43,982 bases of DNA from a virus. The notes under the pieces are model-generated. The model was not told where the DNA came from and ran no database searches. It saw only the letters and a program-made list of their open reading frames with translations. This document shows, in pieces, positions 4,475 through 42,036 of this stretch (the stretch's first letter is position 1; the number at the start of each line of letters is the position of its first letter). A program made the translations under genes and the position numbers. The DNA lies in UHGV virus genome UHGV-0179801; one strand, given 5' to 3'.

Positions 4475-4793
4475 GTTTCTCCTTTCTCGATAAGTAAAGC
4501 CCCGCCATAAAGCGGGGCGCTAGTCCTTATCATTTAAACATAGAAACGGCGTAATCTCAGTAAACCAGTTACTTTTTACACAAGCAATAGATTATGGCCC
4601 TTCCGAACGCGTCAGCGTAACTACACTCAGGACTTACGTCCCGCTCCGTTACCTGCCCGCGCCGCGGTCGCTTGTTCATACTTCACAAGCTCAGGTGGAG
4701 CTTAGCACATTTTTAGTGAAAAGTCAACTATTCGAATAGTTTATTCCAAGATTTACAATTCGGTGGAATAACTGGGATACCTAACCAAATAGT

Positions 4794-4822
4794 TTGCACA
4801 CACCAATATAATAGGGTACTAT
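4794..4822 (+). promoter_or_regulatory. sigma70-like promoter TTGCAC-N17-TACTAT with AATAG-N4-CTATT inverted repeat
   Basis: Conserved 25-nt block caccaatataatagggtactattca (4801-4825), near-identical at 6608 and 40231, followed by the conserved leader tcgaaacgaggaga and an ATG. Confidence 0.55.
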
Positions 4823-4850
4823 TCATTACATCGAAACGAGGAGATGAAAA

Positions 4851-5024
4851 ATGTTCAAAGAAAAAGACATAATGCACGAAAACGGCAAATACTGGGTTCT
4901 AAATGATAAAGGAGTGTACTGCGTAATGATTTCCGGGTTTACCCACGCTAAAGCTGATAGTGCATACGCTAGTTTAGATTTAGCGATAGCCCGCTGTGAT
5001 TATCTGGCGAGTAGAGACGCATAA
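4851..5024 (+). CDS. small moron protein (57 aa), hypothetical
   Basis: ATG 4851 after the conserved promoter/leader (gaggagatgaaaaATG); opposite strand to the flanking late genes; followed by a terminator hairpin. Confidence 0.5.
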   Translation: MFKEKDIMHENGKYWVLNDKGVYCVMISGFTHAKADSAYASLDLAIARCDYLASRDA

Positions 5025-6600: not shown

Positions 6601-6629
6601 TTGCAGACACCAATATAATAGGGTACTAT
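6601..6629 (+). promoter_or_regulatory. sigma70-like promoter TTGCAG-N17-TACTAT (conserved family)
   Basis: Same 25-nt block as at 4801 and 40231, followed by the conserved leader tcgaaacgaggagatgagaaATG. Confidence 0.55.
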
Positions 6630-6656
6630 TCAGTTATCGAAACGAGGAGATGAGAA

Positions 6657-7182: not shown

Positions 7183-7208
7183 AAGGCCCCGAAAGGGGCC
7201 TTTTCTTT
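7183..7208 (+). terminator. rho-independent terminator (AAGGCCCC-gaaa-GGGGCCTT-TTCTTT)
   Basis: 8-bp stem, GAAA loop, T-run, directly after the stop at 7176-7178; same hairpin family as 5028. Confidence 0.6.
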
Positions 7209-10585: not shown

Positions 10586-10726
10586 TCAGGAGATGGCCTT
10601 AAATACGAAGGCTACTGTAACACACGCGGCAAAGAACGTAACGCAGTTCAACAACCATTGCACGACCCAATATCGGTGTGGTTTAGCTGCAATCCAGTCA
10701 CTTATTTTATCCAGAATATCTTTCAT
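10586..10726 (-). CDS. small hydrophobic protein (46 aa)
   Basis: Not in track; ATG 10726 with GGAGAGCGAGAG RBS; hydrophobic stretch VVQWLLNCVTFFAACVTVAFVF. Confidence 0.35.
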   Translation of the reverse strand: MKDILDKISDWIAAKPHRYWVVQWLLNCVTFFAACVTVAFVFKAIS

Positions 10727-11000: not shown

Positions 11001-11187
11001 ATTTGCTCTCTCTCTGTTCGTTAAATTAGTGTATGAAGCGTTTTAACTATACTAGCAGGCTATTCACGCGTCAACAACTTCTGTCTGTATCAGTTATATA
11101 GGCCGTGGCGTGGTGCTCTTTTACCGTCGCCACCGTAATGGTCGTTAGCTACGGCTATAACCCAGGCGTTTTGGATGATTAGCATTC

Positions 11188-13437: not shown

Positions 13438-13521
13438 CTTCTCTACTCCGTTCTCGTTGTCGATGAAAGTAAATATAGTAGGGTCGAGGATAATAGTCAA
13501 CTAGTCATTACAGAAAATAGA

Positions 13522-16709: not shown

Positions 16710-16848
16710 AGTCAATTACCCCGAACTCGTTGATGATTTGCGCCTTGTAGAAGTTGCCGTTTGAGGCCAGGTGATACGCCTGCGCCATAGTCATCTCGCG
16801 ATAAGTTGCGGTGCTATTTTCAAACTCCATAACCATCAAAGTAACCAT
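16699..16848 (-). CDS. small hypothetical protein (49 aa)
   Basis: Not in track; ATG 16848 with the same conserved leader AAACGAGAGGAGAGACAGAAG, directly downstream of a promoter. Confidence 0.35.
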   Translation of the reverse strand: MVTLMVMEFENSTATYREMTMAQAYHLASNGNFYKAQIINEFGVIDYEF

Positions 16849-16879
16849 CTTCTGTCTCTCCTCTCGTTTGTGCAAATGA

Positions 16880-16908
16880 ATAGTAACCTATTCTATCCCA
16901 GTGAGCAA
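16880..16908 (-). promoter_or_regulatory. sigma70-like promoter TTGCTC-N17-TACTAT (minus strand) with AATAG-N4-CTATT repeat
   Basis: Minus-sense reads TTGCTC-17 nt-TACTAT then the conserved leader and an ATG; inverted repeat at 16879-16892. Confidence 0.5.
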
Positions 16909-16979
16909 GTAAATTTTATTGGTGTTTTAAAGATAATCGTTCGCTACTAATCCAGTAGTACCTCGGGCGTCGCGCCCAC

Positions 16980-17267: not shown

Positions 17268-17307
17268 ACAAAAATGAGAAAAATGGTACGCTGCTGTGTA
17301 GCAGCGT
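17268..17307 (-). terminator. hairpin plus U-tract (minus strand), terminator or attenuator
   Basis: ACGCTGCT/AGCAGCGT 8-bp stem with 4-nt loop, followed on the minus strand by ACCATTTTTCTCATTTTTG. Confidence 0.45.
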
Positions 17308-17330
17308 AAGTCACAAAGCCAAATAGTAAC

Positions 17331-17492
17331 CTATTGACCTATTACACCACCTGTTACACCAGCGCGAAATTGCACACCAGCTTTCCACGCCCGCCACGCG
17401 AGACGCGTCTTAACGTTCAGGTACTCTTTCTTCGAACCTTTGTTAACCGGCAGACCCTCTACGACGGCCCACCGTTCAAATGCTTCTCTCAT
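17331..17492 (-). CDS. small hypothetical protein (53 aa)
   Basis: Not in track; ATG 17492 overlaps the stop of the upstream ORF (ATGA). Confidence 0.3.
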   Translation of the reverse strand: MREAFERWAVVEGLPVNKGSKKEYLNVKTRLAWRAWKAGVQFRAGVTGGVIGQ

Positions 17493-18023: not shown

Positions 18024-18056
18024 CTTTAAATTCCTTATGTCTCGTTGCTATAAGTG

Positions 18057-18086
18057 AATAGTATCCTATTATATTGGTGTGTGCAA
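18057..18086 (-). promoter_or_regulatory. sigma70-like promoter TTGCAC-N17-TACTAT (minus strand)
   Basis: Reverse complement of 18054-18086 is ttgcacacaccaatataataggatactattcac, the same conserved block as at 4794, 6601 and 40223. Confidence 0.55.
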
Positions 18087-18455
18087 GAGAGTAGTTACGC
18101 TGCCGTTGTGATTCTTCAGGTAGGGTTGTGCCTTTATTCTTATTACTTGGTAACTAAAGGGCAGGCCTTAAGCCTGCCCGGTAAGGGTTACATTTTTACG
18201 GTTGCGAATCTACGGCACTTTAATAAAATCAGATACTTAAGAGATATGCCGCCGATGAAAATAGAGCTTGCCCAGGGCAACCGGAGATACTTAGAAAGGA
18301 AAGTTACGATAATTCTTGTGTTCAGTAAACTTTCGCTTAACCCTTTGCTTAACGCACGGTTTAAGCGGTTTTACAAGGTGAACAAGAATCAAAGTAACTA
18401 AGATATAGAAGCACCTTAAACGAAGATTTTCATAATGTCAATAGGTGTGATTATG

Positions 18456-18484
18456 TTTGATTTCCCATTATTCGCAATGTATAC
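18456..18484 (+). promoter_or_regulatory. candidate sigma70 promoter TTGATT-N17-TATACT for the rightward replication operon
   Basis: Hexamers with 17-nt spacing about 35 nt upstream of the first rightward gene, at the end of a ~430-bp non-coding region. Confidence 0.4.
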
Positions 18485-18517
18485 TCGATTTTGTTAACTG
18501 ATAATGAGGGTTTGAGA

Positions 18518-18688
18518 ATGACACAGAATGAAGTAGCCGAGCGTATCGGTGTTACTCGTCGCACGCTGAATAACTGGTTAAAGAGTGGGAAGTTCCCTGA
18601 TTGTTGTATTCGCATTATGGGCCGCCGTCAGCCAGGTACGTTTGACCGGGAGAAAGTGGAAGCGTGGATTAAGGAGAACGTGAAATGA
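18518..18688 (+). CDS. AlpA/excisionase-like HTH DNA-binding protein (56 aa)
   Basis: EVAERIGVTRRTLNNWLKSGKFP resembles the AlpA-type helix-turn-helix; ATG 18518 with GAGGG RBS (track start 18491 is a TTG). Confidence 0.5.
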   Translation: MTQNEVAERIGVTRRTLNNWLKSGKFPDCCIRIMGRRQPGTFDREKVEAWIKENVK

Positions 18689-18976: not shown

Positions 18977-21244
18977 ATGTCCGATGTAATTTTATCCTAC
19001 TCGTGGTCCCGCCGCAACGCGCGGGCGGAGAAAAAGGATATAAACGTCAGAACCACACACATGGCAACACTGGACGACCTGAAAGAGTTAATCCAGCCGC
19101 TTGATGCCGTGCGTGACGGGATTAACCCGAAGACAGCGCCCGGCTATATCACTGCCGCGTGCGACTCAACGCACAGCACCGTAAAAGACCCGGAAACAGG
19201 TGACTTTAAGCAGGCGCGTAAAGGTTTCTTTTATCGCTGTGACGCGTCTGTAAGCAAATCGTCGCTGGCGTATCTGGACTTCGACAGTGCAACACCGGAA
19301 GAGTATCAGGAAGCGGTGCGCCTGGTTAAGCGCAGCCGCCAGGCTATGTGCCTCTATACCACGGCATCTCATACCGATGAGTCTCCGCGCTTTCGTGTCG
19401 TCATGCCGCTGGCGCGCCCGGTTGAAGGCGGAGACATCATCCGAGTTCGCCACGGATTGCTGGAGCACTTCTTCAAAGGCATGGGCGCGGACCGCAGCGG
19501 GTTTACCTTGTCGCAGCCGATGTACCTGCCGCCGGTTGGTGCTACTGTTATCTGGTCGCGCCGCAACGACCTGATTGACCCGGACGAGTTACTGGAAGGC
19601 ATCCCGGATTACGAGGTGAGCAGCGCATCGGATTACCAGATACCAGAGGAACTGCGCACCGCGTTTACTGACGCGTTCGAGGCACTGGCGTTTGAGTACG
19701 GCGGCATCATGACACCACGCGGCCTTAAGATGCCAGCTACACCGAAACACGCAGAGAACTACAGCGACCCGACGCCGAGGCCAGATGACTTCCTGCTGTG
19801 CTTCCCGCGCGAAGGGTACGAAGCGCCGAACGTAACAATGATTCACGACACCGACATTACAGCAACCGAAGGCATGTTGCCGAAAGAGGTGTGGAAATAC
19901 GCGTGCGATGCGACCGGGCTGCCGTTCAGTGAAGTCGCAGAGGCCATCGGCTGGGGTGCACGAGAATCTGTCTCATGCAGCCTGGACGACCTGGAAGACG
20001 AGGATGACTCAGAGGAGGACGAGCTACCGGAACCGGTAAAGGCTGATTTCGTCGTAGAAGGGTACATGCCGTCGGATTGCATATGGGATATCGTCGGGGA
20101 ATCTGGCACGTACAAATCGTTCTATACTCTGGGGATGATGTACCTTAGCGCCGCCGGATACCGGTTCGCAGGGGCTGATACCCAGCGTTGCCACCATTTC
20201 TATATTGATGGTGAAGGTGGTGCGGCTACACGTACACGTATTGACGCACTCGCCGCTAAATATGGTGAGGAAGGTAAAGATTATGTACACGTCATCGACA
20301 TGGGTGAAGTCGGAAAACTGAAAAGCCTGATTAAGCTGATGCGAGAAACTGCGGGTGACGAGCCAATTGGGATGGTCGCGTTTGATACCCTCAACCAGAC
20401 GCTGGCCCTGACGATTGATAAGTTCGACGAGAACAGTTCGTCAACGGCAATCGGCATGGGTAAAGTTATCGCCATCCTGAAAGAAGTACGCGATGCAACT
20501 AAAGCCGCGGTAGGCGTCGTACACCATACGCCGAAGGGTGGAAAGAAAGCCCGCGGCAGCGGGGCATTGTATGCAGGTGTTGATGTGGAACTGACAATCG
20601 AACGTGCTACCGACCGCCAGATAAACGTATACCACTCGAAATTTAAGCACGGGCCACAACAGAAAACGGTTGGGATGGTGCTCGAGTCGGTACAGTTCCG
20701 TGAAGCGCCGCCGCCGAAAGAGTACCGCGCGGTTGAGTTCATCGGTAACACAGAGGAATATGGAACAATCGTAAACCTAGACTTGCCCGAGCCGCACAAA
20801 GCGCTTGTTCTGATGCCGTGGGGCTTCGAGCCGTTCAAAACTGACGAGGAGAAAGAGCGGGAAGAAGGGCTGACGAAGGAAGGTAAAGAAAACGTACGTA
20901 AAACCGTAGAGAACGTCGTCAACAGTTCGGAGGCCACGATACTGGCAGCGTTTGAACTGGCGGAAGGAACCTACAACGGCAACGAAGGTATCACGGTAGC
21001 CGCAGCTAATAAGCTCGCACAGTCCGACCCCAACGCAAAGGCGTTTAACTCCAAAGAAGCTATAGAACGTGGGAAGATTAAGAAAATGGTTGAGGCTGGA
21101 TATCTTGTTCCGGGGACTGACGAAAACAATCAGATAATCCCAGGCCGTTACAGGCTGAACACCCGAATAACCGATAACAAGATTCCGAAGACAATATACG
21201 AACCGAATGAAATGTTAACAGTGACAGAGGAGGATTTGGAATGA
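18977..21244 (+). CDS. primase/helicase-like replication protein with RecA-family ATPase domain
   Basis: 755 aa; Walker A-like VGESGTYKS, hydrophobic-then-acid MVAFDTLNQ (Walker B-like), GVVHHTPKGG; N-terminal ~350 aa domain of unclear type. Confidence 0.65.
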   Translation: MSDVILSYSWSRRNARAEKKDINVRTTHMATLDDLKELIQPLDAVRDGINPKTAPGYITAACDSTHSTVKDPETGDFKQARKGFFYRCDASVSKSSLAYLDFDSATPEEYQEAVRLVKRSRQAMCLYTTASHTDESPRFRVVMPLARPVEGGDIIRVRHGLLEHFFKGMGADRSGFTLSQPMYLPPVGATVIWSRRNDLIDPDELLEGIPDYEVSSASDYQIPEELRTAFTDAFEALAFEYGGIMTPRGLKMPATPKHAENYSDPTPRPDDFLLCFPREGYEAPNVTMIHDTDITATEGMLPKEVWKYACDATGLPFSEVAEAIGWGARESVSCSLDDLEDEDDSEEDELPEPVKADFVVEGYMPSDCIWDIVGESGTYKSFYTLGMMYLSAAGYRFAGADTQRCHHFYIDGEGGAATRTRIDALAAKYGEEGKDYVHVIDMGEVGKLKSLIKLMRETAGDEPIGMVAFDTLNQTLALTIDKFDENSSSTAIGMGKVIAILKEVRDATKAAVGVVHHTPKGGKKARGSGALYAGVDVELTIERATDRQINVYHSKFKHGPQQKTVGMVLESVQFREAPPPKEYRAVEFIGNTEEYGTIVNLDLPEPHKALVLMPWGFEPFKTDEEKEREEGLTKEGKENVRKTVENVVNSSEATILAAFELAEGTYNGNEGITVAAANKLAQSDPNAKAFNSKEAIERGKIKKMVEAGYLVPGTDENNQIIPGRYRLNTRITDNKIPKTIYEPNEMLTVTEEDLE

Positions 21245-21555
21245 ATATTTACGATTTTATAGATAATCCGTTTAGAGCAGTGAAGGCAGGATACCGCCCA
21301 TCGTACCTGACTTGTGTTTCTTGTGTAGCTCACCAATGGGGTGCTGTTTGCAAGCTGGCGCTAGAGGAAGTTACAGAATTGCGTCATGTTATGGATATGA
21401 CGTTAAAGGAAATTGTAGCGTGTACCGTCCACATTGTTTTCAGAACTGCAGCTGTGGTTAGTTTTCCGTTAAGCGTATGGCTTTTTGCGTGGATTCAGTA
21501 CCTGAACGTGCAACACACGATTAAGAATATGGAAGAGCTCGATAAGTTGCTATAA
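21241..21555 (+). CDS. hypothetical protein with C-terminal hydrophobic segment (104 aa)
   Basis: Track ORF; ATGA coupling to the primase gene. Confidence 0.45.
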   Translation: MNIYDFIDNPFRAVKAGYRPSYLTCVSCVAHQWGAVCKLALEEVTELRHVMDMTLKEIVACTVHIVFRTAAVVSFPLSVWLFAWIQYLNVQHTIKNMEELDKLL

Positions 21556-21584
21556 AAAAAAAATAAAGGGGCGTTAAGCCCCTT
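21551..21584 (-). terminator. rho-independent terminator for the XRE gene (minus strand)
   Basis: AAGGGGC/GCCCCTT stem with a 5-nt loop, followed on the minus strand by a >=10-nt T-run. Confidence 0.6.
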
Positions 21585-21789
21585 CACCAAACGCCAGCCA
21601 CTTTGCGTCTACTTGCAGCACTTCCGCCAGCTTGAACAGCGTCGCTGGACGTACGTCCTGAGTTACCCCAAGTGCCAGCTGGTTAATCGCGCCCTGGGAA
21701 ACACCGGCCAGGACAGCCAGACGGCGCTGGGAGATGCCGAGTTCTTTGCGGCGTTGTTCTACACGGATGCCTAGTTCAGATGGTTGCAT
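21574..21789 (-). CDS. XRE-family (Cro/CI-type) HTH transcriptional regulator (71 aa)
   Basis: LGISQRRLAVLAGVSQGAINQL is a classic HTH_3 helix-turn-helix; AAGGAG RBS; transcribed divergently from the early promoter at 21854. Confidence 0.7.
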   Translation of the reverse strand: MQPSELGIRVEQRRKELGISQRRLAVLAGVSQGAINQLALGVTQDVRPATLFKLAEVLQVDAKWLAFGEGA

Positions 21790-21815
21790 GTCAATTACTC
21801 CTTAGTTAGTTGATA

Positions 21816-21840
21816 TGTGAATAGTACCATATTAATTATT
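21816..21840 (-). promoter_or_regulatory. promoter/operator for the XRE gene (TGnTACTAT extended -10, degenerate AATAG-N4-ATATT repeat)
   Basis: Minus-sense aattaatatggTACTATtcac about 25 nt upstream of the XRE start; shares the tgaatagt core with the other promoters. Confidence 0.45.
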
Positions 21841-21853
21841 TTAGAAAAGCCCA

Positions 21854-21882
21854 TTGACATCATGAATAGTTCGCTATTATAG
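21854..21882 (+). promoter_or_regulatory. sigma70-like promoter TTGACA-N15/17-TATTAT/TTATAG with AATAG-TTCG-CTATT repeat
   Basis: Consensus -35 TTGACA; inverted repeat 21865-21878 overlaps the -10; followed by leader ccaaacgagaggagagacaaaATG. Confidence 0.55.
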
Positions 21883-21913
21883 TTAGCCCATACCAAACGA
21901 GAGGAGAGACAAA

Positions 21914-22063
21914 ATGATTAACAACCGCAAAGCAAAGATTCTGTTAGGCCTTGATATTGCATTTGGGGCTAAAGAAACCGCACGCTATCGCGTAAGCAAC
22001 AATCGTGTGGGCTTCTTCGACAAAGCAACAGGCCAGTTAGTTAAAACCGTTAAGTATAAATAA
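21914..22063 (+). CDS. small early protein (49 aa)
   Basis: Not in track; ATG 21914 with GAGGAGAGAC RBS immediately downstream of the early promoter. Confidence 0.4.
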   Translation: MINNRKAKILLGLDIAFGAKETARYRVSNNRVGFFDKATGQLVKTVKYK

Positions 22064-22078
22064 ACAGGAGAGAAACAA

Positions 22079-22531
22079 ATGTTAGAACAATTTCTTAAAT
22101 TACTGGAACGTTTCGTAGTTGCACATGAACTGATTGCCGCGAACAGTGTGAAACAAGTTGTCGTTGCTGAAACTGCAACAATCGCGCCTACTGTTGCAAC
22201 AAAAGAAATCCCGGTCGAAGGTGAAGACGTAGTTGACACTAAACCGGCAGAAGAAGAGAAGCCGAAACGCAAGCCGCGTAAAGCTAAAGTAGAGGAACCT
22301 ACGCCAGAGCCAGAAGAAGAAGTCGACTACCAGTCTCTGCGCGACCAGATTCAGGCTATCGATGATGCCATTAACGAAGGTCCGAGCGATGCCGCGTGCG
22401 ACGATTCTGATGAACTGCTGGAAGAGTTCACGGGTAAGAAGATGAAGATTGCTGCGATTAAAGACGAAGACCTGGCCGAGTACCTGGAGCGCCTGACGGC
22501 AATCAAGAACAAGTATTTCGAAGAAGAATAA
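22079..22531 (+). CDS. highly acidic early protein (150 aa)
   Basis: ACAGGAGAGAAAC RBS; Glu/Asp-rich low-complexity sequence (EEEKPKRKPRKAKVEEPTPEPEEEVD...DDSDELLEEF). Confidence 0.55.
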   Translation: MLEQFLKLLERFVVAHELIAANSVKQVVVAETATIAPTVATKEIPVEGEDVVDTKPAEEEKPKRKPRKAKVEEPTPEPEEEVDYQSLRDQIQAIDDAINEGPSDAACDDSDELLEEFTGKKMKIAAIKDEDLAEYLERLTAIKNKYFEEE

Positions 22532-22538
22532 CTATCCC

Positions 22539-22557
22539 GCGGCCTTCGGGCCGCTTT
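22539..22557 (+). terminator. rho-independent terminator with UUCG tetraloop
   Basis: GCGGCC-ttcg-GGCCGC followed by TTT, immediately after the stop of the acidic protein gene. Confidence 0.5.
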
Positions 22558-22574
22558 AAATGAGGGTCGGAATT

Positions 22575-22910
22575 ATGAACTACGAAAATTTAACAGACAT
22601 AGAAATTAATGCACGCGTCAGCCGCGAGCTATACGGCAATGTTTCGCGAGGGCATCAGATGGAATTAGCTTCTGGTGATGTTGATTATTGCAACCGCGTT
22701 GAAGACGCATGGCCTGTTATCACCGGTAACAACATCTCGATTGTAGCTACCGATTCAGAATGGATTGCTTTACCGGATAATGCGGTTATTGACGGTATTA
22801 CCGGAGACGCCACCAGTATGATTTACGTTGGTGACGAATGCGTTATCGGCGAAAACCCTCTACGCGCCGCCATGATTGTATTTCTGAAAATGCGGGAGAA
22901 GGCGCAATGA
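22575..22910 (+). CDS. hypothetical protein (111 aa)
   Basis: Track ORF 22560..22910; ATG 22575 with GAGGG RBS. Confidence 0.5.
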   Translation: MNYENLTDIEINARVSRELYGNVSRGHQMELASGDVDYCNRVEDAWPVITGNNISIVATDSEWIALPDNAVIDGITGDATSMIYVGDECVIGENPLRAAMIVFLKMREKAQ

Positions 22911-23179
22911 TTTACCAACTCTACCGCGCCGTAGACAGGCGGGATAACACAGAGGCGCTATGGCTGTTACGTGCGCCGTCAGGGGCGCACCTGATGGAAG
23001 AGATGGCGTACTTAGGCAAAGTACCTCGGCCTAAAGATATAGGCCGTCACGTGTCGCAGATTAAGCGCACGACTTTCGCAAAACCTGACTTCTATGTCTT
23101 CGAGTCGATGTACAGCTGGGCCTTGCATTGCGACCATAAGACACAGCATTTAATCGACCAGTGGGAGAACAGGGTATGA
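22907..23179 (+). CDS. hypothetical protein (90 aa)
   Basis: Internal ATG of track ORF 22838..23179, overlapping the upstream stop (ATGA) with GGAGAAGG RBS. Confidence 0.45.
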   Translation: MIYQLYRAVDRRDNTEALWLLRAPSGAHLMEEMAYLGKVPRPKDIGRHVSQIKRTTFAKPDFYVFESMYSWALHCDHKTQHLIDQWENRV

Positions 23180-24417
23180 TTCTAAAAGAACGCGGCGGCA
23201 ATAACGATGTGCACGCCTTATTGTCACCATCAGGCGCTAAAAAGTGGTTAAGTTGCGCCGCATCACTGGCCTGTGAAAAAGATATTCCTAACACGTCCGG
23301 TAAAGCAGCCGTTACAGGAACCGCGTGTCACACTATAGCTGAGGTCCATCTAAACCAGTACATCAAAGGCACTGCGCTGCCGTTAGAGCGTGAAGTCGGT
23401 GCCTACGTGCTGGATGAGGGTAAAGGCCAGATTAAGGCGCTAATCAGCCCGATGAAAGGCGCTGTACTGATTACGGCGGACATGATTGAGCAAGTGCGCA
23501 AGTACACCGACTACTGCAAACCGATTATTGACGTCGCGACTTATGCCAAGCTGGAAATGCGCGTCAATCTTACTGAGGTATTGCATCCTGGTTATGAAGA
23601 CGTCGAGACGTTCGGGACAGCCGACCTTGTTGCCGTTCAGGAGCTGGCTAACTCCGACGAGCACATGCTTATCGTCGGCGACCTTAAAACCGGACGGCAT
23701 CGTGTCGAAGCGAAAGAAAACAAACAGCTTATGCTATACGCTCTCGGTGTTTATCGCCGACTCAAGAGACGTTATAACATCACCGTGGTTCGTCTGGTCA
23801 TCTTCCAGCCCTACGCTGGTGGTGCGTCGGAGTGGGACATCTCGGTTGAAGGCCTTGAACTGTTCGCTAAGTTTGCGCAGAAACGCGCACTGTTAGCTCT
23901 TGATGCGTATTTCCGTGGTAAGAAGAACCTGAAAGCATCGGATTTCAAGCCGTCTGTCGATGGTTGTCAGTGGTGTCGGTTCTCTGAACAATGCGCCGCG
24001 CGTACAAAGACGGTTAATTCTGTACTGGCAGAAGAACTGGAAGACGACTTTGCGCTGGAACTTACACCAGAGCAACTCGTAGCTGAGTATGAGAAGTTGC
24101 CGTTGTTGCGCCAGCACATCGACAAGGTTGAGAAAGCTATGGCCGCCGCGTTGCATTCCGGTAAGAAAGTGCCAGGGTACAAGCTGGTTGAAGGTAAGAT
24201 GGGCAACCGTGCGTGGAAAGACGCGGAGAAAGTGGCAGAACTGTACGGCGACAAGCTGACTAAAGAAGTGCTCATGACACCGACCGAAGCGGTTAAAGTA
24301 ATACCGGAAGAAGAACTGAAAGACTTCATTACCCGTAAGCCTGGCGCGCCATGCGTCGCAACGGCAGACGACAAACGGCCTGAATGGAATCAGGTTAGTG
24401 AAGAAGATTTGGAATAA
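23176..24417 (+). CDS. PD-(D/E)XK nuclease, Cas4/RecB-like recombination exonuclease
   Basis: Nuclease core GTADLVAV ... IVGDLKTG; one N-terminal Cys plus C-terminal CQWCRFSEQC cluster as in Cas4-like Fe-S nucleases; ATGA coupling upstream. Confidence 0.65.
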   Translation: MILKERGGNNDVHALLSPSGAKKWLSCAASLACEKDIPNTSGKAAVTGTACHTIAEVHLNQYIKGTALPLEREVGAYVLDEGKGQIKALISPMKGAVLITADMIEQVRKYTDYCKPIIDVATYAKLEMRVNLTEVLHPGYEDVETFGTADLVAVQELANSDEHMLIVGDLKTGRHRVEAKENKQLMLYALGVYRRLKRRYNITVVRLVIFQPYAGGASEWDISVEGLELFAKFAQKRALLALDAYFRGKKNLKASDFKPSVDGCQWCRFSEQCAARTKTVNSVLAEELEDDFALELTPEQLVAEYEKLPLLRQHIDKVEKAMAAALHSGKKVPGYKLVEGKMGNRAWKDAEKVAELYGDKLTKEVLMTPTEAVKVIPEEELKDFITRKPGAPCVATADDKRPEWNQVSEEDLE

Positions 24418-24421
24418 AGTG

Positions 24422-24447
24422 TTGACACCTGAATAGTTAGCTATTAT
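24422..24447 (+). promoter_or_regulatory. sigma70-like promoter TTGACA-N14/17-TATTAT/TATATT with AATAG-TTAG-CTATT repeat
   Basis: gttgacacctgaatagttagctattatattc upstream of the SSB-like gene. Confidence 0.55.
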
Positions 24448-24516
24448 ATTCTAATCACTGGCCGGGCAGCTCCCGGAGTAAACTTTGAAATATAAACTGA
24501 AAAGCGAGAAATCAAG

Positions 24517-25146
24517 ATGGGCATTAAACTGAATCTGCGTAAAGTAAACACTGCATGGGTTAACGTATTCGAACGCGCTGCCGACTCTGAGGACAAGAAA
24601 ACCGGTAAACTGATTAAGGGTAAATACCAGGTTACGGTTCTTATGCAGCCTGACCACCCTCAAATCGACGCGCTTTACGACACCGCGCTGGAAGTTGTAA
24701 CAGAGGCAATCGGGACCGCTGCTGCTGAAAAATGGATGAAGGCCAACTACGGTGTAGACCACCACGCAGATAAATGCTGCGTCCGTGACCTGGCAATGCG
24801 GGATAATCCGATTGAGGATTTTGAAGAAGGTCTGTATTTCCGCGCCACTAACAACCGTCAACCGGTGATTATGACATCGGCTAAAGGTGAAAAACAAACC
24901 GAGCCTGATTTCAACATCGATGGGCAGGAAGTAGAAGGCGAGCAGGTGTACAGCGGGTGTGTAGCAAACGTATCTGTAGAGTTATGGTGGCACAAAGAAT
25001 GGAAAAACCTGTGCGCTACCATCCTCGGCATCAAGTATGCTGGTGAAGGTAAACGCTTCGGCGGCTCCAGTGTAGTAGCGAGCACCGACGACCTGGAAGA
25101 CGACGAAGAAGATGGAGCACCACGCCGCGAACGTCGCCGTCGTTAA
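24517..25146 (+). CDS. single-stranded DNA-binding/annealing protein (putative)
   Basis: 209 aa with acidic tract DDLEDDEEDG near the C-terminus; located between the nuclease and the polymerase; assignment by context and composition. Confidence 0.5.
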   Translation: MGIKLNLRKVNTAWVNVFERAADSEDKKTGKLIKGKYQVTVLMQPDHPQIDALYDTALEVVTEAIGTAAAEKWMKANYGVDHHADKCCVRDLAMRDNPIEDFEEGLYFRATNNRQPVIMTSAKGEKQTEPDFNIDGQEVEGEQVYSGCVANVSVELWWHKEWKNLCATILGIKYAGEGKRFGGSSVVASTDDLEDDEEDGAPRRERRRR

Positions 25147-25165
25147 TATCTGAATCAATTTTACT

Positions 25166-25189
25166 AAGGCCCTTCATTGGGCCTTTTTA
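25166..25189 (+). terminator. rho-independent terminator (AAGGCCC-ttcatt-GGGCCTT-TTT)
   Basis: 7-bp stem and T-run about 20 nt after the SSB-like stop. Confidence 0.55.
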
Positions 25190-25202
25190 CTAAGGGTCGA
25201 AA

Positions 25203-25361
25203 ATGATGTTTTTCTGTAAGCACGTTTATCGCTATATGAAACCGCTTCCGTGGTACGCGGATGAGTACCGGGCCGGGTACGGGCATGTGTGGATTTGCCG
25301 TGATTGTATGAAAATAAGACTCAGCGAAACGAAGGCACTGGATTTAAGGAAAAAGAAATGA
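25203..25361 (+). CDS. small Cys/His protein (52 aa, zinc-ribbon-like)
   Basis: Not in track; ATG 25203 after AAGGGTCGAAA; CKH...CRDC; its stop overlaps the polymerase ATG (ATGA). Confidence 0.35.
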   Translation: MMFFCKHVYRYMKPLPWYADEYRAGYGHVWICRDCMKIRLSETKALDLRKKK

Positions 25362-27559
25362 GCTATTTATACCTGGACTTTGAAACATTCTCCGAGGCCG
25401 ATTTGAAGAAAGTCGGTTCCTACGCTTACGCCGAACACCCAACCACAGAAGTGCTTATCTGTACCTATGCTTTTGACGACGAGCCTGTGCAGGTATGGGA
25501 TTGCACCGACGGCAGCGACATGCCAGGTGATTTACACCGCGCGTTACGCCGTCTGGTGAAGCTGAACAGCCACATTAAGATGGTGTGGCATAACGGCTCA
25601 ATGTTCGATCGCCTCATCATGAAACACTGCTGGGGTTTTGATATTCCGGTAAGCAACACCATTGATACGATGATTTGGGCGTTTCGTCACGCGCTGCCGG
25701 GTTCTCTTGATGCGTTGTGCGAAGTGCTTGGCGTATCTGCTGACAACGCGAAAGACAAACGAGGCAAGGCGCTGATTCAGCGTTTTTCTAAACCGACACC
25801 GAAGAACTACAAAATCCGCCGTTACACCGCAGAAACACACCCGGACGAGTGGGCGTTGTTCATCAAGTACGCTGTGAGTGACATCACCGCGATGCGCGAA
25901 GTATTCCATAAGCTGCCGCGTTGGGGTAACTCAGAGTTTGAAGACCGTGTACTGGAACTGGACCAGCTAATCAACGACCGCGGGTTTAAGGTTGACGTCG
26001 CACTGGCAGAAGCCGCGATTGAAGCCGTGGAGAAACACAAGGCACAGTTACAGGAAGAAGCCCAACGTAAATACGGCGGCTCGCTTACCGGAAATGACTT
26101 CCTTCCGATTCTGCGTGAACTCGCACCGGCGCACCGTATTCACAACGCGCAGAAGTCTACACTTAACGACCTGCTGGCGGACGATGATTTACCTGACGAC
26201 GCCCGGACGATTATCGAAATGCGCCTCGGGGCGGCGTCTACTGCGTCAACGAAATATAACCCGCTGCTGTTGGGTCGCTCGTCTGACGACCGTCGTCGCG
26301 GTTGCTTGCAGTACGGTGGGGCGAAACGTACTCTGCGATGGGCAGGTAAAGGCTTCCAGCCGCAGAACCTGGCACGCGGTTACTATCACGATGATGAGCT
26401 GGATAAAGGCATTTCGGCGTTACTTAAGGGCCGCGCCCATCGCCGTTTCGATGTAGCCAAGCTAACGGCATCGACGGTTCGTAGTTGCATCATACCGGAA
26501 GCCGGGCACAAGTTTGTCGTAGCTGATTACTCTAACGTCGAAGGTCGGGGGCTTGCGTGGTTGGCTGGTGAAGAAACCGCGCTCGATACCTTCCGCGCCG
26601 GGTTGGATATTTACTGCGTAACCGCGGGCAAGATGTTCGGCATGGACCCTGATGACATTAAGAAAAACTTCAAGGAAATCAGACAGATAGGCAAGGCATG
26701 CGAACTTGGCCTCGGCTACGAGGGGGGCGTAGGTGCTTTCGTTACGTTTGCTAAAAACTTAGGTCTTGACCTTATTGAGATGGCAAAAACAATGGACGGG
26801 ACTTTCCCCGACCACATCTGGGCTGCTACCGCACGTGGGTATGAGTGGGCGCGTATACAAGAAGCAAAGCGCCCTCCACATCCAGGTGAAAAGGATGACA
26901 GACCATCGTATATTCTGGACAAGAAAGTGTGGCGCACATGCGATGCGATCAAGCGTATGTGGCGCGAGTCACACCCGGAAACAGTAGCGTTCTGGCGCGA
27001 CCTTAAAGACGGAATCTTAGCCGCTGTTCGTAATCCTGGACGTGAATTTTGGGCGGGGGCACACTTGCGCAGGAATGGGGAAAGGGCGATCCGCATATGG
27101 CGTAATGTAGAATTTGATTCGTCCGGTAGGAAGGTTCCGGGTTGGTGGTTGTGTGTGGAGTTGCCGTCAGGCCGTATCCTCTCGTATCCGGGAATTGGGG
27201 TTAGTGTGACAAAGGAAACAGACGAGGACGGACGGGTGAACACGAATGTGCGAATCAAGTATCAAGGCGAAAACCAGTTAACCCGCCAATGGACCACCCT
27301 GTACACACACGGCGGCAAAGCCTGTGAAAACATTGTCCAGGCGCTGTGCCGTGATTTACTCGCATATGCGATGATTAATGTTGAGGGCGGCGGGTACCCC
27401 ATCGTGCTTTCGGTACACGATGAACTGGTATGTGAAACTCCAGATACAGCGGATTACACGGTACATGATCTGGAAAAATTAATGTGCGCGTTGCCTAAGT
27501 GGGCAGAAGGCTTCCCTCTTGTAGCGGAAGGTCAGGAGTTAAAACGCTATGCTAAGTAA
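25358..27559 (+). CDS. DNA polymerase, family A, with 3'-5' exonuclease domain
   Basis: Exo I LDFETFS; polymerase motif A DYSNVEGRGLAWLAGE; motif B RQIGKACELGLGYEGG; motif C SVHDELV. ATG 25358 preferred over track start 25304. Confidence 0.85.
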   Translation: MSYLYLDFETFSEADLKKVGSYAYAEHPTTEVLICTYAFDDEPVQVWDCTDGSDMPGDLHRALRRLVKLNSHIKMVWHNGSMFDRLIMKHCWGFDIPVSNTIDTMIWAFRHALPGSLDALCEVLGVSADNAKDKRGKALIQRFSKPTPKNYKIRRYTAETHPDEWALFIKYAVSDITAMREVFHKLPRWGNSEFEDRVLELDQLINDRGFKVDVALAEAAIEAVEKHKAQLQEEAQRKYGGSLTGNDFLPILRELAPAHRIHNAQKSTLNDLLADDDLPDDARTIIEMRLGAASTASTKYNPLLLGRSSDDRRRGCLQYGGAKRTLRWAGKGFQPQNLARGYYHDDELDKGISALLKGRAHRRFDVAKLTASTVRSCIIPEAGHKFVVADYSNVEGRGLAWLAGEETALDTFRAGLDIYCVTAGKMFGMDPDDIKKNFKEIRQIGKACELGLGYEGGVGAFVTFAKNLGLDLIEMAKTMDGTFPDHIWAATARGYEWARIQEAKRPPHPGEKDDRPSYILDKKVWRTCDAIKRMWRESHPETVAFWRDLKDGILAAVRNPGREFWAGAHLRRNGERAIRIWRNVEFDSSGRKVPGWWLCVELPSGRILSYPGIGVSVTKETDEDGRVNTNVRIKYQGENQLTRQWTTLYTHGGKACENIVQALCRDLLAYAMINVEGGGYPIVLSVHDELVCETPDTADYTVHDLEKLMCALPKWAEGFPLVAEGQELKRYAK

Positions 27560-27761: not shown

Positions 27762-28067
27762 ATGAGCACGCCTGAGGGCCGCGTACAGAAATACGCAAAG
27801 GAGCGATTCGAGGCCATTGGTGGCCTCGTTAGAAAGCTGTCTTATGAGGGTAGAAACGGAGCGCCTGACCTGCTGGTAGTCCTTCCGGGAGGGGTGATAT
27901 GGTTCGTCGAGGTGAAGAAAGACGAAAACACGGAACCGGAGGCCCATCAGTTGCGGGAACACAAACGGCTTCGTAAACGTGACGCAAATGTTTTTGTAGT
28001 AGGAACAAAAGAAGAGGTTGACACCCTAATAGCGAACTATTATAGTAGCCATACACCAACAATATAA
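27762..28067 (+). CDS. VRR-NUC domain nuclease
   Basis: GAPDLLVVLPGGVIWFVEVKK matches the VRR-NUC PD-(D/E)XK signature; GGGAGGGG RBS. Confidence 0.65.
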   Translation: MSTPEGRVQKYAKERFEAIGGLVRKLSYEGRNGAPDLLVVLPGGVIWFVEVKKDENTEPEAHQLREHKRLRKRDANVFVVGTKEEVDTLIANYYSSHTPTI

Positions 28068-30766: not shown

Positions 30767-30793
30767 AAGGCCCCAAACGGGGCCTTAGTTTTA
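30767..30793. terminator. bidirectional rho-independent terminator (AAGGCCCC-aaac-GGGGCCTT)
   Basis: 8-bp stem; T-rich tracts on both strands (agtttta on plus, ttttctct on minus); sits between the convergent replication operon and the tailspike gene. Confidence 0.6.
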
Positions 30794-32997: not shown

Positions 32998-35553
32998 TTA
33001 ATAAAAACCGTTGCTGAATCCGTCGGAGAAACCGCGACCTAAAGGCGCGACGCCGTCGTATTTGTAGAATCCGTCGTCATAGTTGTAACCAGTAATCTTG
33101 ACCGTGCGGTCGTCGCCCGGGTCGATTGAAGAAACAACTATCTTCTGAGCATTATGCCTTGCTTCGTTGCCGAATGAAAACTCAGTTTTTAGTGCGCTAT
33201 TCCCCGTGTAGATTGCTTCCTCCGGCGCGGAGAGCATAATCACCTCGCGGTCATGGCTTCCTTTGATAACAGAGATACTCTGCACCGAGCCGTCGCGCTT
33301 CTTGAGGATGATGGAGTGGTCGTCTCCAGGGGTAAACGTAACAGGCTGAGACAACGTCAGGGTAAGCCCATTAACAGCAACGACATAGCCGTCCTGGGGC
33401 GCAATACGCGAACCTTTAACCACGCTGATTACACCACCTGGGGTAGCAAGAGCGCCTTCTTCCGTAGCTTCGAATTCTACGACAACTTTACTTAACGCGT
33501 TGCGCTGATAGCGACGCCACGCCAGCCAATATGCCTGTTGGTAGTTACGCACGCCCTTTGATTCGTATTCCTCCGTATTTGCGCCCAGTTCTTCCGGGAT
33601 ATAAATCGTTTCCTGTACGTTAGTATCCGGGTCGATGTATGAGAATGACAAGCTATCGTAGGTTGTCGAATCGTTGAACGTGCGCGTCCATTTCTCGGTA
33701 CCGGTAGTTTTGCTGCGGTGGGTGAACACCATTTCAGGCCCCGCGACAGGACGGTCGAATCGCAGCATAATATCTGCGCCTTTACGGTACGCAGTACAGA
33801 ACACGGCTTCCGCTATGGTCTGGACTATGTCCTGCATCGTGGTATCGTAGTCGTCGAACGTATAGCAGAATTGTCCGGCTAATTCGCTGCCAAAATAGGA
33901 CTCAATTTCTTCCTGCACAGCGAGTAACTTATCCATATTTGCCGTTGTCAGTTCCAGATTACCCACCGCCGGGTCTCGAGCCAGTCTGATTAGTGACTGC
34001 ACCGCCTGTGTATTAGGCGTCATTACCGTATCAAATACCCCATTGCCTAAGTATTTGTAGCACATCTCGGTCGCAATCATGCGCAGTTCCGGGTTGTCGA
34101 TACTGGCGGCACGCGGTGTCTGTTTACGGGCACAATGTACGGTAGTTCGGTTTCCGTAATGCGGGGTAGTGTCCAGTGACTGACCGTACAGGTTGATGAA
34201 CGTTATTTCGTCGCTTACCGTTCCGTCGTAGTCCTTGTCGAAATTAGTTATACGGCGCATACGGGCGCGGAAACGAGATGCGGTCGGAAACTGCCCGTAG
34301 ATAGACGTACCGACGTAATCCGTATTATTGCCTGTAATTGTGGCCTGTACCGTGTAAATGTCGCTCAAAGGGTTGCGTTGAGAGTCAATCATCTGGTACT
34401 GGAGTTCTACGGTTACGCTGGTGCGGTTATAGCCGCCGTCGTATTTGTAGAGGCCATTCTGCCCCGCGACGTTAGCAAGCACACGGTCAACCTCTCCGCG
34501 CACCATGTAGTACCAGTCTGTCAGGGATACATCATAGGTGTTGCTCGGGCCGATAAACGTATCTGAACGCTCTGTTAGGGTGTACGTCTGTCCGCTGGTC
34601 AACGCCGCCCAGTTAGACGCACCGTTTACAGCTAATCTTACTTCGAAGTCGTCAACGTATAAAACCTCAAACGAGCCGTTCAGGTTAGTGACGTCCTTAA
34701 CGTCAAAGTTGCTCAGCACCGCGATATCGCCAACGCTAAGAAACTCAGAAAAAGCAGAGTCGCCCGACGGGTCATAGATGTAGCCGGTGGTTGAAATACG
34801 TTTGGCGGTGCCACCGGCGCTTGGGTTAGCCCCAATGTCGTTGGGTGCTTTCAGTACAATACCGTCAACGTCGTCGTTGGAGTATGTTACATAAAGTTTC
34901 TGGTCAATTACGTCGCCGATTTGTAGTTGCGGTGAAGTGGTGTTGTTAGGTGATGTATACGGCGCATACACGGCAACAGAGGAGCCTGTGATGTCGCTTA
35001 TCAGGGTGTCACCCTCGGTTACACCATCCGCCTCAATATGCAGATGCCCGCGCCCTGCGTCGTAGTACGAATACTCCAGCAAAGCACCAGTGGAGTTGAA
35101 CGCCTTATACGTCTGCATAAGGTCGTTGGGGATTGTCTGCACAGTCCCGCAGATGTCATAAGAGCGCTCGTAAGGACGCGGCTTGTTGGAGCGGTCTGTT
35201 AGGCTGTTATTCGGTGACGTTGTCTGGTTGTTAGTCGCCGTGTAGTTGGCGTTGGCGGCCGTGTTCAGGCCAAACAACTTGGCGATTGGCTTAAGGATAA
35301 AACCAAACACCTTACTAACCGCACCGAGCGCCCCGCTACCCGCGCCCTCAATAATGTGGTACACGGCATCTTCGTCTTTAAGCGCATCGAAGTCGTCCGT
35401 TACGTCTGTATCATCGCCAATCTCGCCGAGGTAGACGCGCACCGGCACGCCGTCCGGGATACGGTTAACGACAAACTCCATCGGCATCCCGACGTGTTTT
35501 GTACGGTCGAAAACGCCATCAGCGTTCCGCGTGTAGTGCAGGATTATCGCCAA
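32998..35553 (-). CDS. tail tip / central fibre protein (lambda J-like)
   Basis: 851 aa, downstream of the minor tail proteins; assigned by size and gene order. Confidence 0.65.
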   Translation of the reverse strand: MAIILHYTRNADGVFDRTKHVGMPMEFVVNRIPDGVPVRVYLGEIGDDTDVTDDFDALKDEDAVYHIIEGAGSGALGAVSKVFGFILKPIAKLFGLNTAANANYTATNNQTTSPNNSLTDRSNKPRPYERSYDICGTVQTIPNDLMQTYKAFNSTGALLEYSYYDAGRGHLHIEADGVTEGDTLISDITGSSVAVYAPYTSPNNTTSPQLQIGDVIDQKLYVTYSNDDVDGIVLKAPNDIGANPSAGGTAKRISTTGYIYDPSGDSAFSEFLSVGDIAVLSNFDVKDVTNLNGSFEVLYVDDFEVRLAVNGASNWAALTSGQTYTLTERSDTFIGPSNTYDVSLTDWYYMVRGEVDRVLANVAGQNGLYKYDGGYNRTSVTVELQYQMIDSQRNPLSDIYTVQATITGNNTDYVGTSIYGQFPTASRFRARMRRITNFDKDYDGTVSDEITFINLYGQSLDTTPHYGNRTTVHCARKQTPRAASIDNPELRMIATEMCYKYLGNGVFDTVMTPNTQAVQSLIRLARDPAVGNLELTTANMDKLLAVQEEIESYFGSELAGQFCYTFDDYDTTMQDIVQTIAEAVFCTAYRKGADIMLRFDRPVAGPEMVFTHRSKTTGTEKWTRTFNDSTTYDSLSFSYIDPDTNVQETIYIPEELGANTEEYESKGVRNYQQAYWLAWRRYQRNALSKVVVEFEATEEGALATPGGVISVVKGSRIAPQDGYVVAVNGLTLTLSQPVTFTPGDDHSIILKKRDGSVQSISVIKGSHDREVIMLSAPEEAIYTGNSALKTEFSFGNEARHNAQKIVVSSIDPGDDRTVKITGYNYDDGFYKYDGVAPLGRGFSDGFSNGFY

Positions 35554-40222: not shown

Positions 40223-40251
40223 TTGCACACCCCAATATAATAGGGTACTAT
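40223..40251 (+). promoter_or_regulatory. sigma70-like promoter TTGCAC-N17-TACTAT (conserved family)
   Basis: acttgcacaccccaatataatagggtactattca, the same block as at 4794 and 6601. Confidence 0.55.
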
Positions 40252-40281
40252 TCACTTACACCAACAATGGAGGAGTTTAAA

Positions 40282-42009: not shown

Positions 42010-42036
42010 AAGGCCCCTTTCGGGGCCTTAGTTTTA
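42010..42036. terminator. bidirectional rho-independent terminator (AAGGCCCC-tttc-GGGGCCTT)
   Basis: 8-bp stem with T-tracts on both strands, between the rightward cassette and the convergent major tail gene. Confidence 0.6.

Follow-up and report, generated by a model that had tools for sequence, protein, structure and literature searches.

Virus genome UHGV-0179801, a stretch of 43,982 nucleotides (nt) that we refer to as the window, contains multiple copies of the inverted repeat AATAG-N4-CTATT located at promoter-like cores on both strands. We conclude, with a probability of roughly 0.65, that this repeat is the operator of the phage's own 71-amino-acid (71-aa) protein, a small helix-turn-helix (HTH) protein that resembles phage 434 Cro, and that the promoters concerned are transcribed by host sigma-70 RNA polymerase, which a bound dimer of the protein is predicted to occlude. 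An operator is favoured over a mere promoter element because the dyad slides and flips relative to the promoter in which it lies, because its half-sites are invariant while the central N4 varies, and because a 434-Cro-like protein is encoded next to it. A preliminary description of the window had offered both possibilities, an operator of the XRE-family protein or a shared promoter element; the evidence favours the former, with binding by the XRE protein being what we infer from sequence.

A motif search over the window found nine exact copies of the repeat against 0.03 expected from 100 dinucleotide shuffles, and 14 copies with at most one mismatch against 1.21 expected, a count of 14 that was never reached by any shuffle. 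The exact copies start at 4810, 6617, 16879, 17322, 18057, 21865, 24432, 28028 and 40239. The recurrence noted in the preliminary description is therefore real, and the sequence that it gave is present at all nine of its coordinates, with 21820 being a one-mismatch copy as claimed, but its site list overlooked the exact copy at 28028 and three one-mismatch promoter sites on the minus strand (11051, 13492 and 4719). AATAG-N4-CTATT is the commonest 5+5 palindrome in the window (nine copies), in the Kagunavirus fFiEco02 (seven) and in the Jerseyvirus SETP3 (five). All but one of the 14 sites are intergenic or at gene ends and 12 are on promoter-like cores; the one-mismatch match at 33894, inside a tail gene, is probably a chance match, of which about one is expected. 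A greedy map of longest open reading frames (ORFs) put spurious ORFs on true intergenic regions (for example 4728-4877, 16771-16950 and 18054-18401), and site contexts were hence assigned from Shine-Dalgarno (SD) and ATG positions and from annotated relatives rather than from that map.

Examination of the sites with 45 nt of flank on each side, on both strands, together with a sigma-70 promoter scan, assigned the promoters to classes that differ in where the dyad lies. In class A (4810, 6617 and 40239 on the plus strand, 18057, 16879 and the degenerate 21820 on the minus strand) TTGCAC is followed by 10 nt and then AATAGGnTACTATT, such that the centre and right half of the dyad build the -10 hexamer TACTAT and the site covers about -19 to -6; the gap from -35 to site is 10-11 nt across the class. 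In class B (21865, 24432 and 28028 on the plus strand, 11051 on the minus strand) the order is TTGAC(A/G), 4-5 nt, AATAG-N4-CTATT and ATAGT, with the site filling the spacer from about -25 to -12 and only its last T starting the -10 (TATAGT or TATATT). The 21865, 24432 and 28028 promoters are the top sigma-70 matches of the central 20 kb, with agreement at 11 of 12 positions. Class C (13492 and 4719, both minus strand) has its -35, TTGACT, within the site. A fourth register is found in relatives, where the site starts 7 nt from the -35 and the -10 is TATTAT or TATTGT; examples are SETP3 15245, an annotated promoter, and sites in the IMG/VR loci L052 and L054. Across the window and relatives the internal geometry of the dyad is constant while its register relative to -35 and -10 shifts among these four positions and occurs in both orientations. 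The string TACTATTATAGT contains three -10 hexamers in 3-nt steps, namely TACTAT, TATTAT and TATAGT. The earlier placement of the repeat over the -10 thus applies to class A but not to class B, where the site is in the spacer, or to class C, where it is over the -35. Likewise, the conserved flanks described earlier (tG...AT) are real and asymmetric, but their direction relative to transcription is reversed between classes A and B. What emerges is a dyad with conserved half-sites and a variable centre that overlaps the core promoter in a register not fixed with respect to the polymerase contacts, as is expected of a repressor operator.

The gene for the 71-aa protein (21574..21789, minus strand) encodes a single-domain XRE/HTH_3 protein and candidate repressor that matches Pfam HTH_3 (PF01381) with an E value of 1.2e-12 and 48 bits against a cut-off of 23. 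Among PDB sequences, phmmer ranked phage 434 Cro first, a protein likewise of 71 aa, with a full-length alignment (E 4.9e-7, residues 6-68 against 4-64); the 434 repressor N-domain and P22 C2 came next. An AlphaFold2 single-sequence model has five helices and a pLDDT of 84, and Foldseek with this model placed 2cro first (TM 0.72/0.78) with 1pra and 3cro also at the top (TM 0.72-0.79) and with C.AhdI and C.BclI among the matches. The modelled five-helix fold can be superposed on 434 Cro, and the protein carries neither a C-terminal peptidase nor an oligomerisation domain. By both sequence and predicted fold, the gene product is most similar to phage 434 Cro. The operators of phage 434 are 14-bp dyads, ACAAG-N4-CTTGT, with a 5-N4-5 layout, and the 5-N4-5 geometry of the window's motif is likewise compatible with binding of a dimer of the Cro-like protein to a dyad of about 14 bp. 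In structures of the 434 repressor on its operator, A1 is contacted by Gln28, base pairs 2-3 by Gln29 and base pair 4 by Gln33. The alignment of the 71-aa protein shows Gln, Gly and Gln at the equivalents of these three residues (VSQGAINQ): those that would contact the shared A1 and A4 are retained, whereas the one facing bases 2-3, where the operators differ, is not. By homology, this pattern is consistent with the operator hypothesis.

The intergenic region of 124 bp upstream of this gene, from which transcription diverges, contains two sites; they do not flank the gene on either side as the preliminary description had it. The class A site 21820..21833 (minus strand, one mismatch) is AATATGGTACTATT and covers the -10 TACTAT (21826..21821) of the Cro-like gene's own promoter, where it is presumed to be an autoregulatory operator. 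The exact class B site 21865..21878 (plus strand) is in the divergent rightward promoter (TTGACA 21854-21859, N18, TATAGT 21878-21883) that serves a 49-aa ORF, a 150-aa ORF and a nuclease gene. The Cro-like gene adjoins two sites, one of them on its own -10, in every Kagunavirus locus that we examined, and it is the XRE gene alone, not the window's other HTH gene, that has palindromes on its own promoter.

This arrangement is conserved in related phages. BLAST of positions 20000-26000 and 1-25000 against phage genomes found about 90% identity to the E. coli siphoviruses SHAK7693, fFiEco02 and XY1 of the genus Kagunavirus (Guernseyvirinae), and several hundred Salmonella Jerseyvirus records also match at lower identity. 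By its sequence the window is a Kagunavirus-type (Guernseyvirinae) virulent phage genome; the annotated relatives are virulent genomes of 42-45 kb, and relatives also carry the P22-like genes NinH, NinX and NinZ. Three fully annotated relatives list no gene for an integrase, CI or an RNA polymerase, and phage transcription must therefore depend on host RNA polymerase. The homologue set comprised 80 IMG/VR loci with homologues of the 71-aa HTH gene plus four Logan/ENA loci; relatives recovered by protein search with the 71-aa protein were all of Guernseyvirinae type, and an identical recognition helix was not found in an unrelated element. In all loci with a Kagunavirus-type protein the start codon is preceded by an exact site at a distance of about 85 nt and by a one-mismatch site at about 40 nt, the latter (21820) being invariant in about 40 Kagunavirus loci. 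Among 33 unique orthologues of the 21865 promoter both half-sites are invariant, and variation is found at centre positions 8-9 and in the 4-5 nt after the -35, including a 1-nt indel. The 16879 promoter is similarly constrained, with 25 of 27 unique orthologues exact and two with one mismatch. For the 28028 promoter a loose landmark pattern returned 118 mostly spurious sequences and was dropped, with listed unique variants used instead. Orthologous Jerseyvirus promoters keep the half-sites while N4 and flanks differ from Kagunavirus, and in SETP3 the site-bearing promoters are those of the immunity island, the helicase, DUF2815/polymerase, the divergent, the leftward and the post-lysis genes, two of which are annotated as promoters there. 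Half-sites that stay constant while centre, flanks and register are free to vary point to an operator bound by a dimer rather than to polymerase contacts.

The half-site also varies among lineages, in part together with the protein. In a lineage with a 77-78% identical protein and an unchanged recognition helix the sites are unchanged and the DNA between the gene's two operators differs. The Jerseyvirus protein (50% identity, helix SQSLITH) is accompanied by the same AATAG core. At the orthologous divergent promoter of locus L052 (helix TQGGIGH) the dyad is a perfect AATAC-GTCG-GTATT, and AATAC-type sites also occur at the promoter of its Cro-like gene and at two others (AATAC-N4-GTATT at L052 2396-2474, 5428, 5958 and 9514). 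In Cornellvirus (helix TQSAISH) the half-sites are ATTAG, AATAC and ATTAC, with ATTAG/AATAC-N4-STAAT dyads at positions 10710, 13950, 14566, 23820 and 25367 of locus L003. A relaxed motif, AWTAS-N4-STAWT, is enriched in Cornellvirus (5 copies against 0.54 expected), L052 (4 against 0.11) and L054 (3 against 0.24). Targeted scans found this motif absent from contigs with more distant HTH homologues, and a general repeat search of the Cornellvirus and klb_E genomes returned terminators only. Covariation of protein and site across genera is accordingly suggestive, but it is partial and not clean.

We infer that the Cro-like protein binds these sites, that binding represses and that graded affinity sets the timing of expression. 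In the proposed mechanism, a Cro-like dimer would sit on the 14-bp dyad with each AATAG half-site taking one recognition helix in successive major grooves, and since the sites lie at about -40 to -6 of their promoters, a bound dimer would block RNA polymerase. Perfect sites are found at promoters for replication and recombination (21865, 24432 and 28028), at leftward promoters (18057 and 16879) and at opposite-strand island promoters (4810, 6617 and 40239). One-mismatch sites are found at the protein's own promoter (21820), which would provide autoregulation, and at promoters ahead of packaging and head genes (11051, 13492 and 4719); the latter would be repressed later or less and could stay active longer. 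The preliminary description had proposed control of early and accessory promoters, which understates the regulon, as degenerate copies precede terminase and head genes; at least one promoter, 18457(+), is site-free. It is possible, though doubtful, that in an entire, strictly virulent subfamily of siphoviruses the timing of all expression is governed by host RNA polymerase and one Cro-like protein, without CI, a phage sigma factor or a phage RNA polymerase, with operator quality and register encoding timing and with a half-site that co-evolves with the protein (AATAG, AATAC, ATTAG).

Several observations weigh against the 71-aa protein acting as a repressor at these sites. The literature searched contained no binding or expression data for the Cro-like protein or for this phage group. 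The promoter-proximal half-site always feeds a -10-like hexamer, so the promoter itself explains part of the conservation, and at the Jerseyvirus Cro-like gene's own promoter only the -10-proximal half is well preserved (AATAGTACAGTAAT). Class A cores are poor sigma-70 matches (TTGCAC/TACTAT, 7/12, missed by promoter scans), yet about 32 bp of them are conserved, and their control may involve more than simple repression. If nearly all promoters bear a site, then temporal logic hangs on putative affinity differences. The mapping of recognition helix to half-site is not one-to-one across lineages. For example, Jerseyvirus retains AATAG though four of seven recognition-helix positions differ (SQSLITH against SQGAINQ), and Cornellvirus has a helix near that of Jerseyvirus yet a different, looser motif. 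Finally, the window encodes another small HTH protein (18518-18688).

That the repeat is no more than a shared element of strong promoters for host RNA polymerase, composed of an A/T-rich spacer and -10-like hexamers on both strands and spread by cassette duplication with no dedicated binder, is in our judgement rather unlikely. Such an element would account for the half-site that always lends bases to the -10, for the near identity of four class A promoters across about 32 bp, as copied cassettes would show, and for the TATTAT-like hexamers on both strands of the sites (the reverse of 18057 scores as TTGCTA-16-TATTAT), and the literature does take the repeat as a promoter consensus. It would not account for a distal half-site (-19 to -15, -25 to -21 or upstream of the -35, depending on class) that is as invariant as the proximal one at positions where sigma-70 makes no base-specific contact, or for a dyad spacing that stays constant while the register relative to -35 and -10 shifts by 3, 6 or more bp and the orientation flips. 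Additionally, the orphan copy at 17322 is conserved without a -35, and promoters without the site exist, such as 18457(+) and the SETP3 amidase promoter. Still less favoured is the published view that a phage-encoded RNA polymerase uses the repeat as its promoter, which takes its support from a PHIRE output that was so read for fBC-Eco01 (PMC9825357). This we regard as scarcely credible: the class B sites are embedded in sigma-70 promoters of the canonical form TTGACA-N17/18-TATAGT, the three fully annotated relatives have no annotated gene for such a polymerase, and gene content refutes the label.

The repeat might also be a true operator with another binder, such as the second HTH protein, a NinH-like protein or a host regulator, which we consider unlikely. 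The preliminary description counted the 71-aa gene as the only classic HTH repressor-type gene; it is the sole XRE-type one, but a second small HTH protein of 56 aa, Xis/MerR-like (18518-18688, plus strand; PHROG excisionase/transcriptional regulator, HTH_17), is also encoded. It is the first gene of the helicase-primase operon, whose promoter 18457(+) is free of the palindrome, its gene adjoins the same gap in relatives, and it could be the phage's earliest regulator. MerR-type regulators do work from dyads in promoter spacers, but the 56-aa protein lacks the MerR dimerisation helix and matches excisionase, terminase-small and HTH_17 families, and proteins of the excisionase/HTH_17 type usually bind direct repeats rather than dyads. 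The 5-N4-5 dyad is instead the textbook geometry of dimers of the 434-Cro/P22-C2 type, and sites on the gene's own promoter are found only at the XRE gene. An E. coli regulator whose consensus is AATAG-N4-CTATT is not known to us. Lastly, the Cro-like protein could have a dual function, repressing the consensus class B promoters while being needed for, or stimulating, the weak-consensus class A promoters, and so act as a switch rather than a global shut-off. The high conservation of class A promoters at 7/12 sigma-70 positions and the different site placement in classes A and B would fit such a switch; however, a site centred at about -12.5 is poorly placed to activate, and A/T-rich tracts upstream could instead serve as UP elements, and we hold this possibility to be very improbable.

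With the 71-aa protein as the probable binder, the closest known system is phage 434, whose Cro and repressor N-domain provide the likeness in sequence and fold noted above. Like the window's repeat, the 434 operators are dyads of 14 bp in which half-sites of 5 bp enclose four non-conserved base pairs, with A1, A4 and G5 common to both. In both cases a cro-type gene neighbours its operators, putative ones in the window, where promoters diverge, and the sites overlap core promoters. The two differ in that the window's phage group is virulent and has no CI partner, integrase or bistable switch, that two sites rather than three are at the gene, that 13 sites are dispersed over the genome in place of two operator clusters, and that half-site positions 2-3 differ, with Gly at the equivalent of Gln29. 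P22 C2/Cro (ANTNAAG-N4-CTTNANT) and lambda Cro are also HTH dimers on promoter-core dyads with an uncontacted 4-bp centre, and P22 C2 is among the matches, but similarity is weaker than to 434 Cro and theirs are temperate immunity regions. Mycobacteriophage L5 gp71 is a small repressor with many genome-scattered stoperators, which are asymmetric, orientation-dependent, within transcribed regions and act by an elongation block. The likeness to L5 is that of a single small phage repressor with many scattered sites and genome-wide control, whereas the sites here are symmetric and on promoter cores, with only 17322 stoperator-like by position. Aca repressors and restriction-modification C-proteins are small XRE-type HTH dimers that use inverted repeats over -35/-10 to damp strong promoters, lytic phages included (PMC9410906); they control their own single operon, while here most phage promoters bear sites.

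Other arrangements were considered and set aside. Bidirectional promoters were ruled out, as at most sites a -35 is on one side only and an SD and start codon are on the other. Aca-type control of a single operon was ruled out by the genome-wide distribution of sites. The divergent region does not have the make-up of a lambdoid immunity region: opposite the Cro-like gene is a 49-aa ORF with replication genes behind it, the sites there number just two, and relatives have no annotated CI, integrase or lysogeny gene. The sites are also not of the stoperator type, being palindromic with 12 of 13 on promoter cores and only 17322 intragenic or terminal.

The repeat itself has already been described. 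In the Kagunavirus fBC-Eco01 seven PHIRE repeats with the consensus tgAATAGTa-ccTATTat-T, identical to the repeat in the window, were assigned to a phage RNA polymerase, and two HTH proteins were named apart from and without a tie to the repeat (PMC9825357); seven PHIRE promoters are likewise listed for Golestan (PMC7203180). The published reading differs from ours in taking the repeat as the promoter of a polymerase that these phages do not encode. We found no paper tying the repeat to the Cro-like protein, no RNA-seq, promoter mapping or repressor study for Jerseyvirus or Kagunavirus and no account of gene regulation in Guernseyvirinae in the literature searched, and neither the operator reading nor the 434-Cro assignment was found described in the searchable literature. 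A probable Cro-type operator would correct the published label of a promoter for a non-existent phage RNA polymerase, and it would account for the presence of a "repressor" gene in strictly lytic phages, which matters where safety assessments flag repressors as signs of a temperate phage. Among phages considered for therapy or biocontrol of E. coli and Salmonella, Guernseyvirinae (Kagunavirus, Jerseyvirus) are some of the most often isolated. The putative regulon is compact, with about 13 sites, and is directly testable, and the genus-specific half-site variants would provide a natural specificity series for studies of the 434-Cro family. A Cro-type repressor-operator circuit is an ordinary kind of phage circuit, here predicted to be genome-wide, and leaves general concepts unchanged.

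The remaining class B sites are distributed as follows. The exact site 24432..24445 (plus strand; TTGACA 24422-24427, 4 nt, site, -10 TATATT 24445-24450) precedes the genes for a DUF2815 single-stranded-DNA-binding protein and DNA polymerase, and an orthologous site is present in Jerseyvirus SETP3. The exact site 28028..28041 (plus strand; TTGACA 28018-28023, 4 nt, site, -10 TATAGT 28041-28046) precedes a 63-aa ORF and the SNF2 helicase operon. On the minus strand, the one-mismatch site 11051..11064 (TTGACG 11074..11069, 4 nt, AATAGCCTGCTAGT, -10 TATAGT 11051..11046) precedes a 76-aa ORF and then the terminase genes. Both class C sites are one-mismatch and on the minus strand. The first, 13492..13505, has the -35 TTGACT 13500..13495 inside the site and the -10 TATATT 13477..13472, lies after the lysis-gene terminator and before small ORFs and packaging genes, and is kept as ACTAGTTGACTATT in Kagunavirus and AATAGTTGACTAGT in Jerseyvirus. 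The second, 4719..4732 (AATAGTTGACTTTT), has the -35 TTGACT 4727..4722 and a -10-like TAAGCT 4704..4699, with an equivalent at 5682 in fFiEco02.

The class A sites outside the divergent region are all exact. On the plus strand, 4810..4823 (TTGCAC 4794-4799, 10 nt, site, -10 TACTAT 4817-4822) precedes a 57-aa ORF at 4851, 6617..6630 (TTGCAG 6601-6606) precedes a 173-aa RusA-like/clamp-like ORF at 6657, and 40239..40252 (TTGCAC 40223-40228) precedes a superinfection-immunity protein (40267) and a metallophosphoesterase; the orthologue of the last is SETP3 15245, on a promoter annotated in the SETP3 record. On the minus strand, 18057..18070 (TTGCAC 18086..18081), kept in fFiEco02 and SETP3, serves leftward genes from 18023, and 16879..16892 (TTGCTC 16908..16903, -10 TACTAT 16885..16880) serves a DUF7170 ORF (ATG 16848). 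Four near-identical cassettes of about 32 bp, TTGCACACACCAATATAATAGGGTACTATTCA, are found at 4794-4825, 6601-6632 and 40223-40254 (plus strand) and at 18041-18086 (minus strand), and drive leftward genes and the opposite-strand "island" genes inside structural modules (the 57-aa, the RusA-like/clamp-like, and the superinfection-immunity and metallophosphoesterase genes). They look like a copied promoter cassette travelling with moron-like insertions.

The exact site 17322..17335 (minus strand) is an orphan and not a promoter. The preliminary description treated all of its sites as promoters, and the others it listed are indeed on promoter-like cores, but 17322 has no -35; it overlaps the codon that terminates ORF 17331-17492(-), and the terminator hairpin 17308..17287 follows 13 nt downstream. 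It is present in several Kagunavirus loci and absent from fFiEco02. A second AATAGGT half-site is 9 nt upstream of it (17322-17362, minus strand), and in relatives a tandem GGTGTAACAGGT repeat ahead of the orphan encodes a GVTGGV repeat at the C-terminal end of ORF 17331-17492. The orphan is possibly a roadblock or a promoter remnant. The palindrome-free promoter-like core mentioned above, 18457(+), consists of TTGATT-17-TATACT at 18457-18485 and precedes the helicase-primase operon.

Two recurrent 5'-leader motifs, AACGAG(A)GGAG and CACCAACAAT..GGA, are located right upstream of the SD, about 10-25 nt downstream of sites 4810, 6617, 16879, 21865 and 13492 and of sites 28028 and 40239. They recur at Jerseyvirus, L052 and L054 promoters, and complementarity to the anti-SD provides no explanation for them; they may mark a conserved 5' end of the mRNA or serve as a signal for translation.

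Two homologous modules on the minus strand (4727..4499 and 18442..18159) each consist of a promoter, 200-250 nt of untranslated RNA and a hairpin. The element at 18150-18445, in the gene-free gap 18071-18490, has a conserved promoter (TTGACA 18442..18437, N17, TAAGGT 18419..18414) followed by about 250 nt without an ORF and a hairpin at 18179..18159 (tail TTTAGTTACC) just upstream of the class A promoter 18057(-). The consensus structure that RNAalifold computed from 10 Kagunavirus and Jerseyvirus sequences of it contains 45 pairs, of which 12 show compensatory double changes. An Rfam scan of the window matched zero families, this element included, which is a candidate structured non-coding RNA, antitermination leader or origin transcript. 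In the module at 4499-4735 the class C promoter (site 4719-4732) is followed by an untranslated leader of about 200 nt and a hairpin at 4518..4499 (tail TTTACTTATC) that sits 15 nt before the SD of a spanin-like gene (ATG 4474), beyond which are scaffold and capsid genes. This layout is reminiscent of lambda PR'-6S-tR', and no Q-like gene was identified for the module. In IMG/VR locus L017 the 4499-4735 sequence type is found in place of the 18150-18445 element, which makes the two interchangeable homologues. Finally, a perfect bidirectional terminator hairpin, AAGGCCCC-NNNN-GGGGCCTT, is present in three copies (7183-7202, 30767-30786 and 42010-42029) that mark flips in gene orientation, and Cornellvirus L003 also has repeats of this element (family D1).

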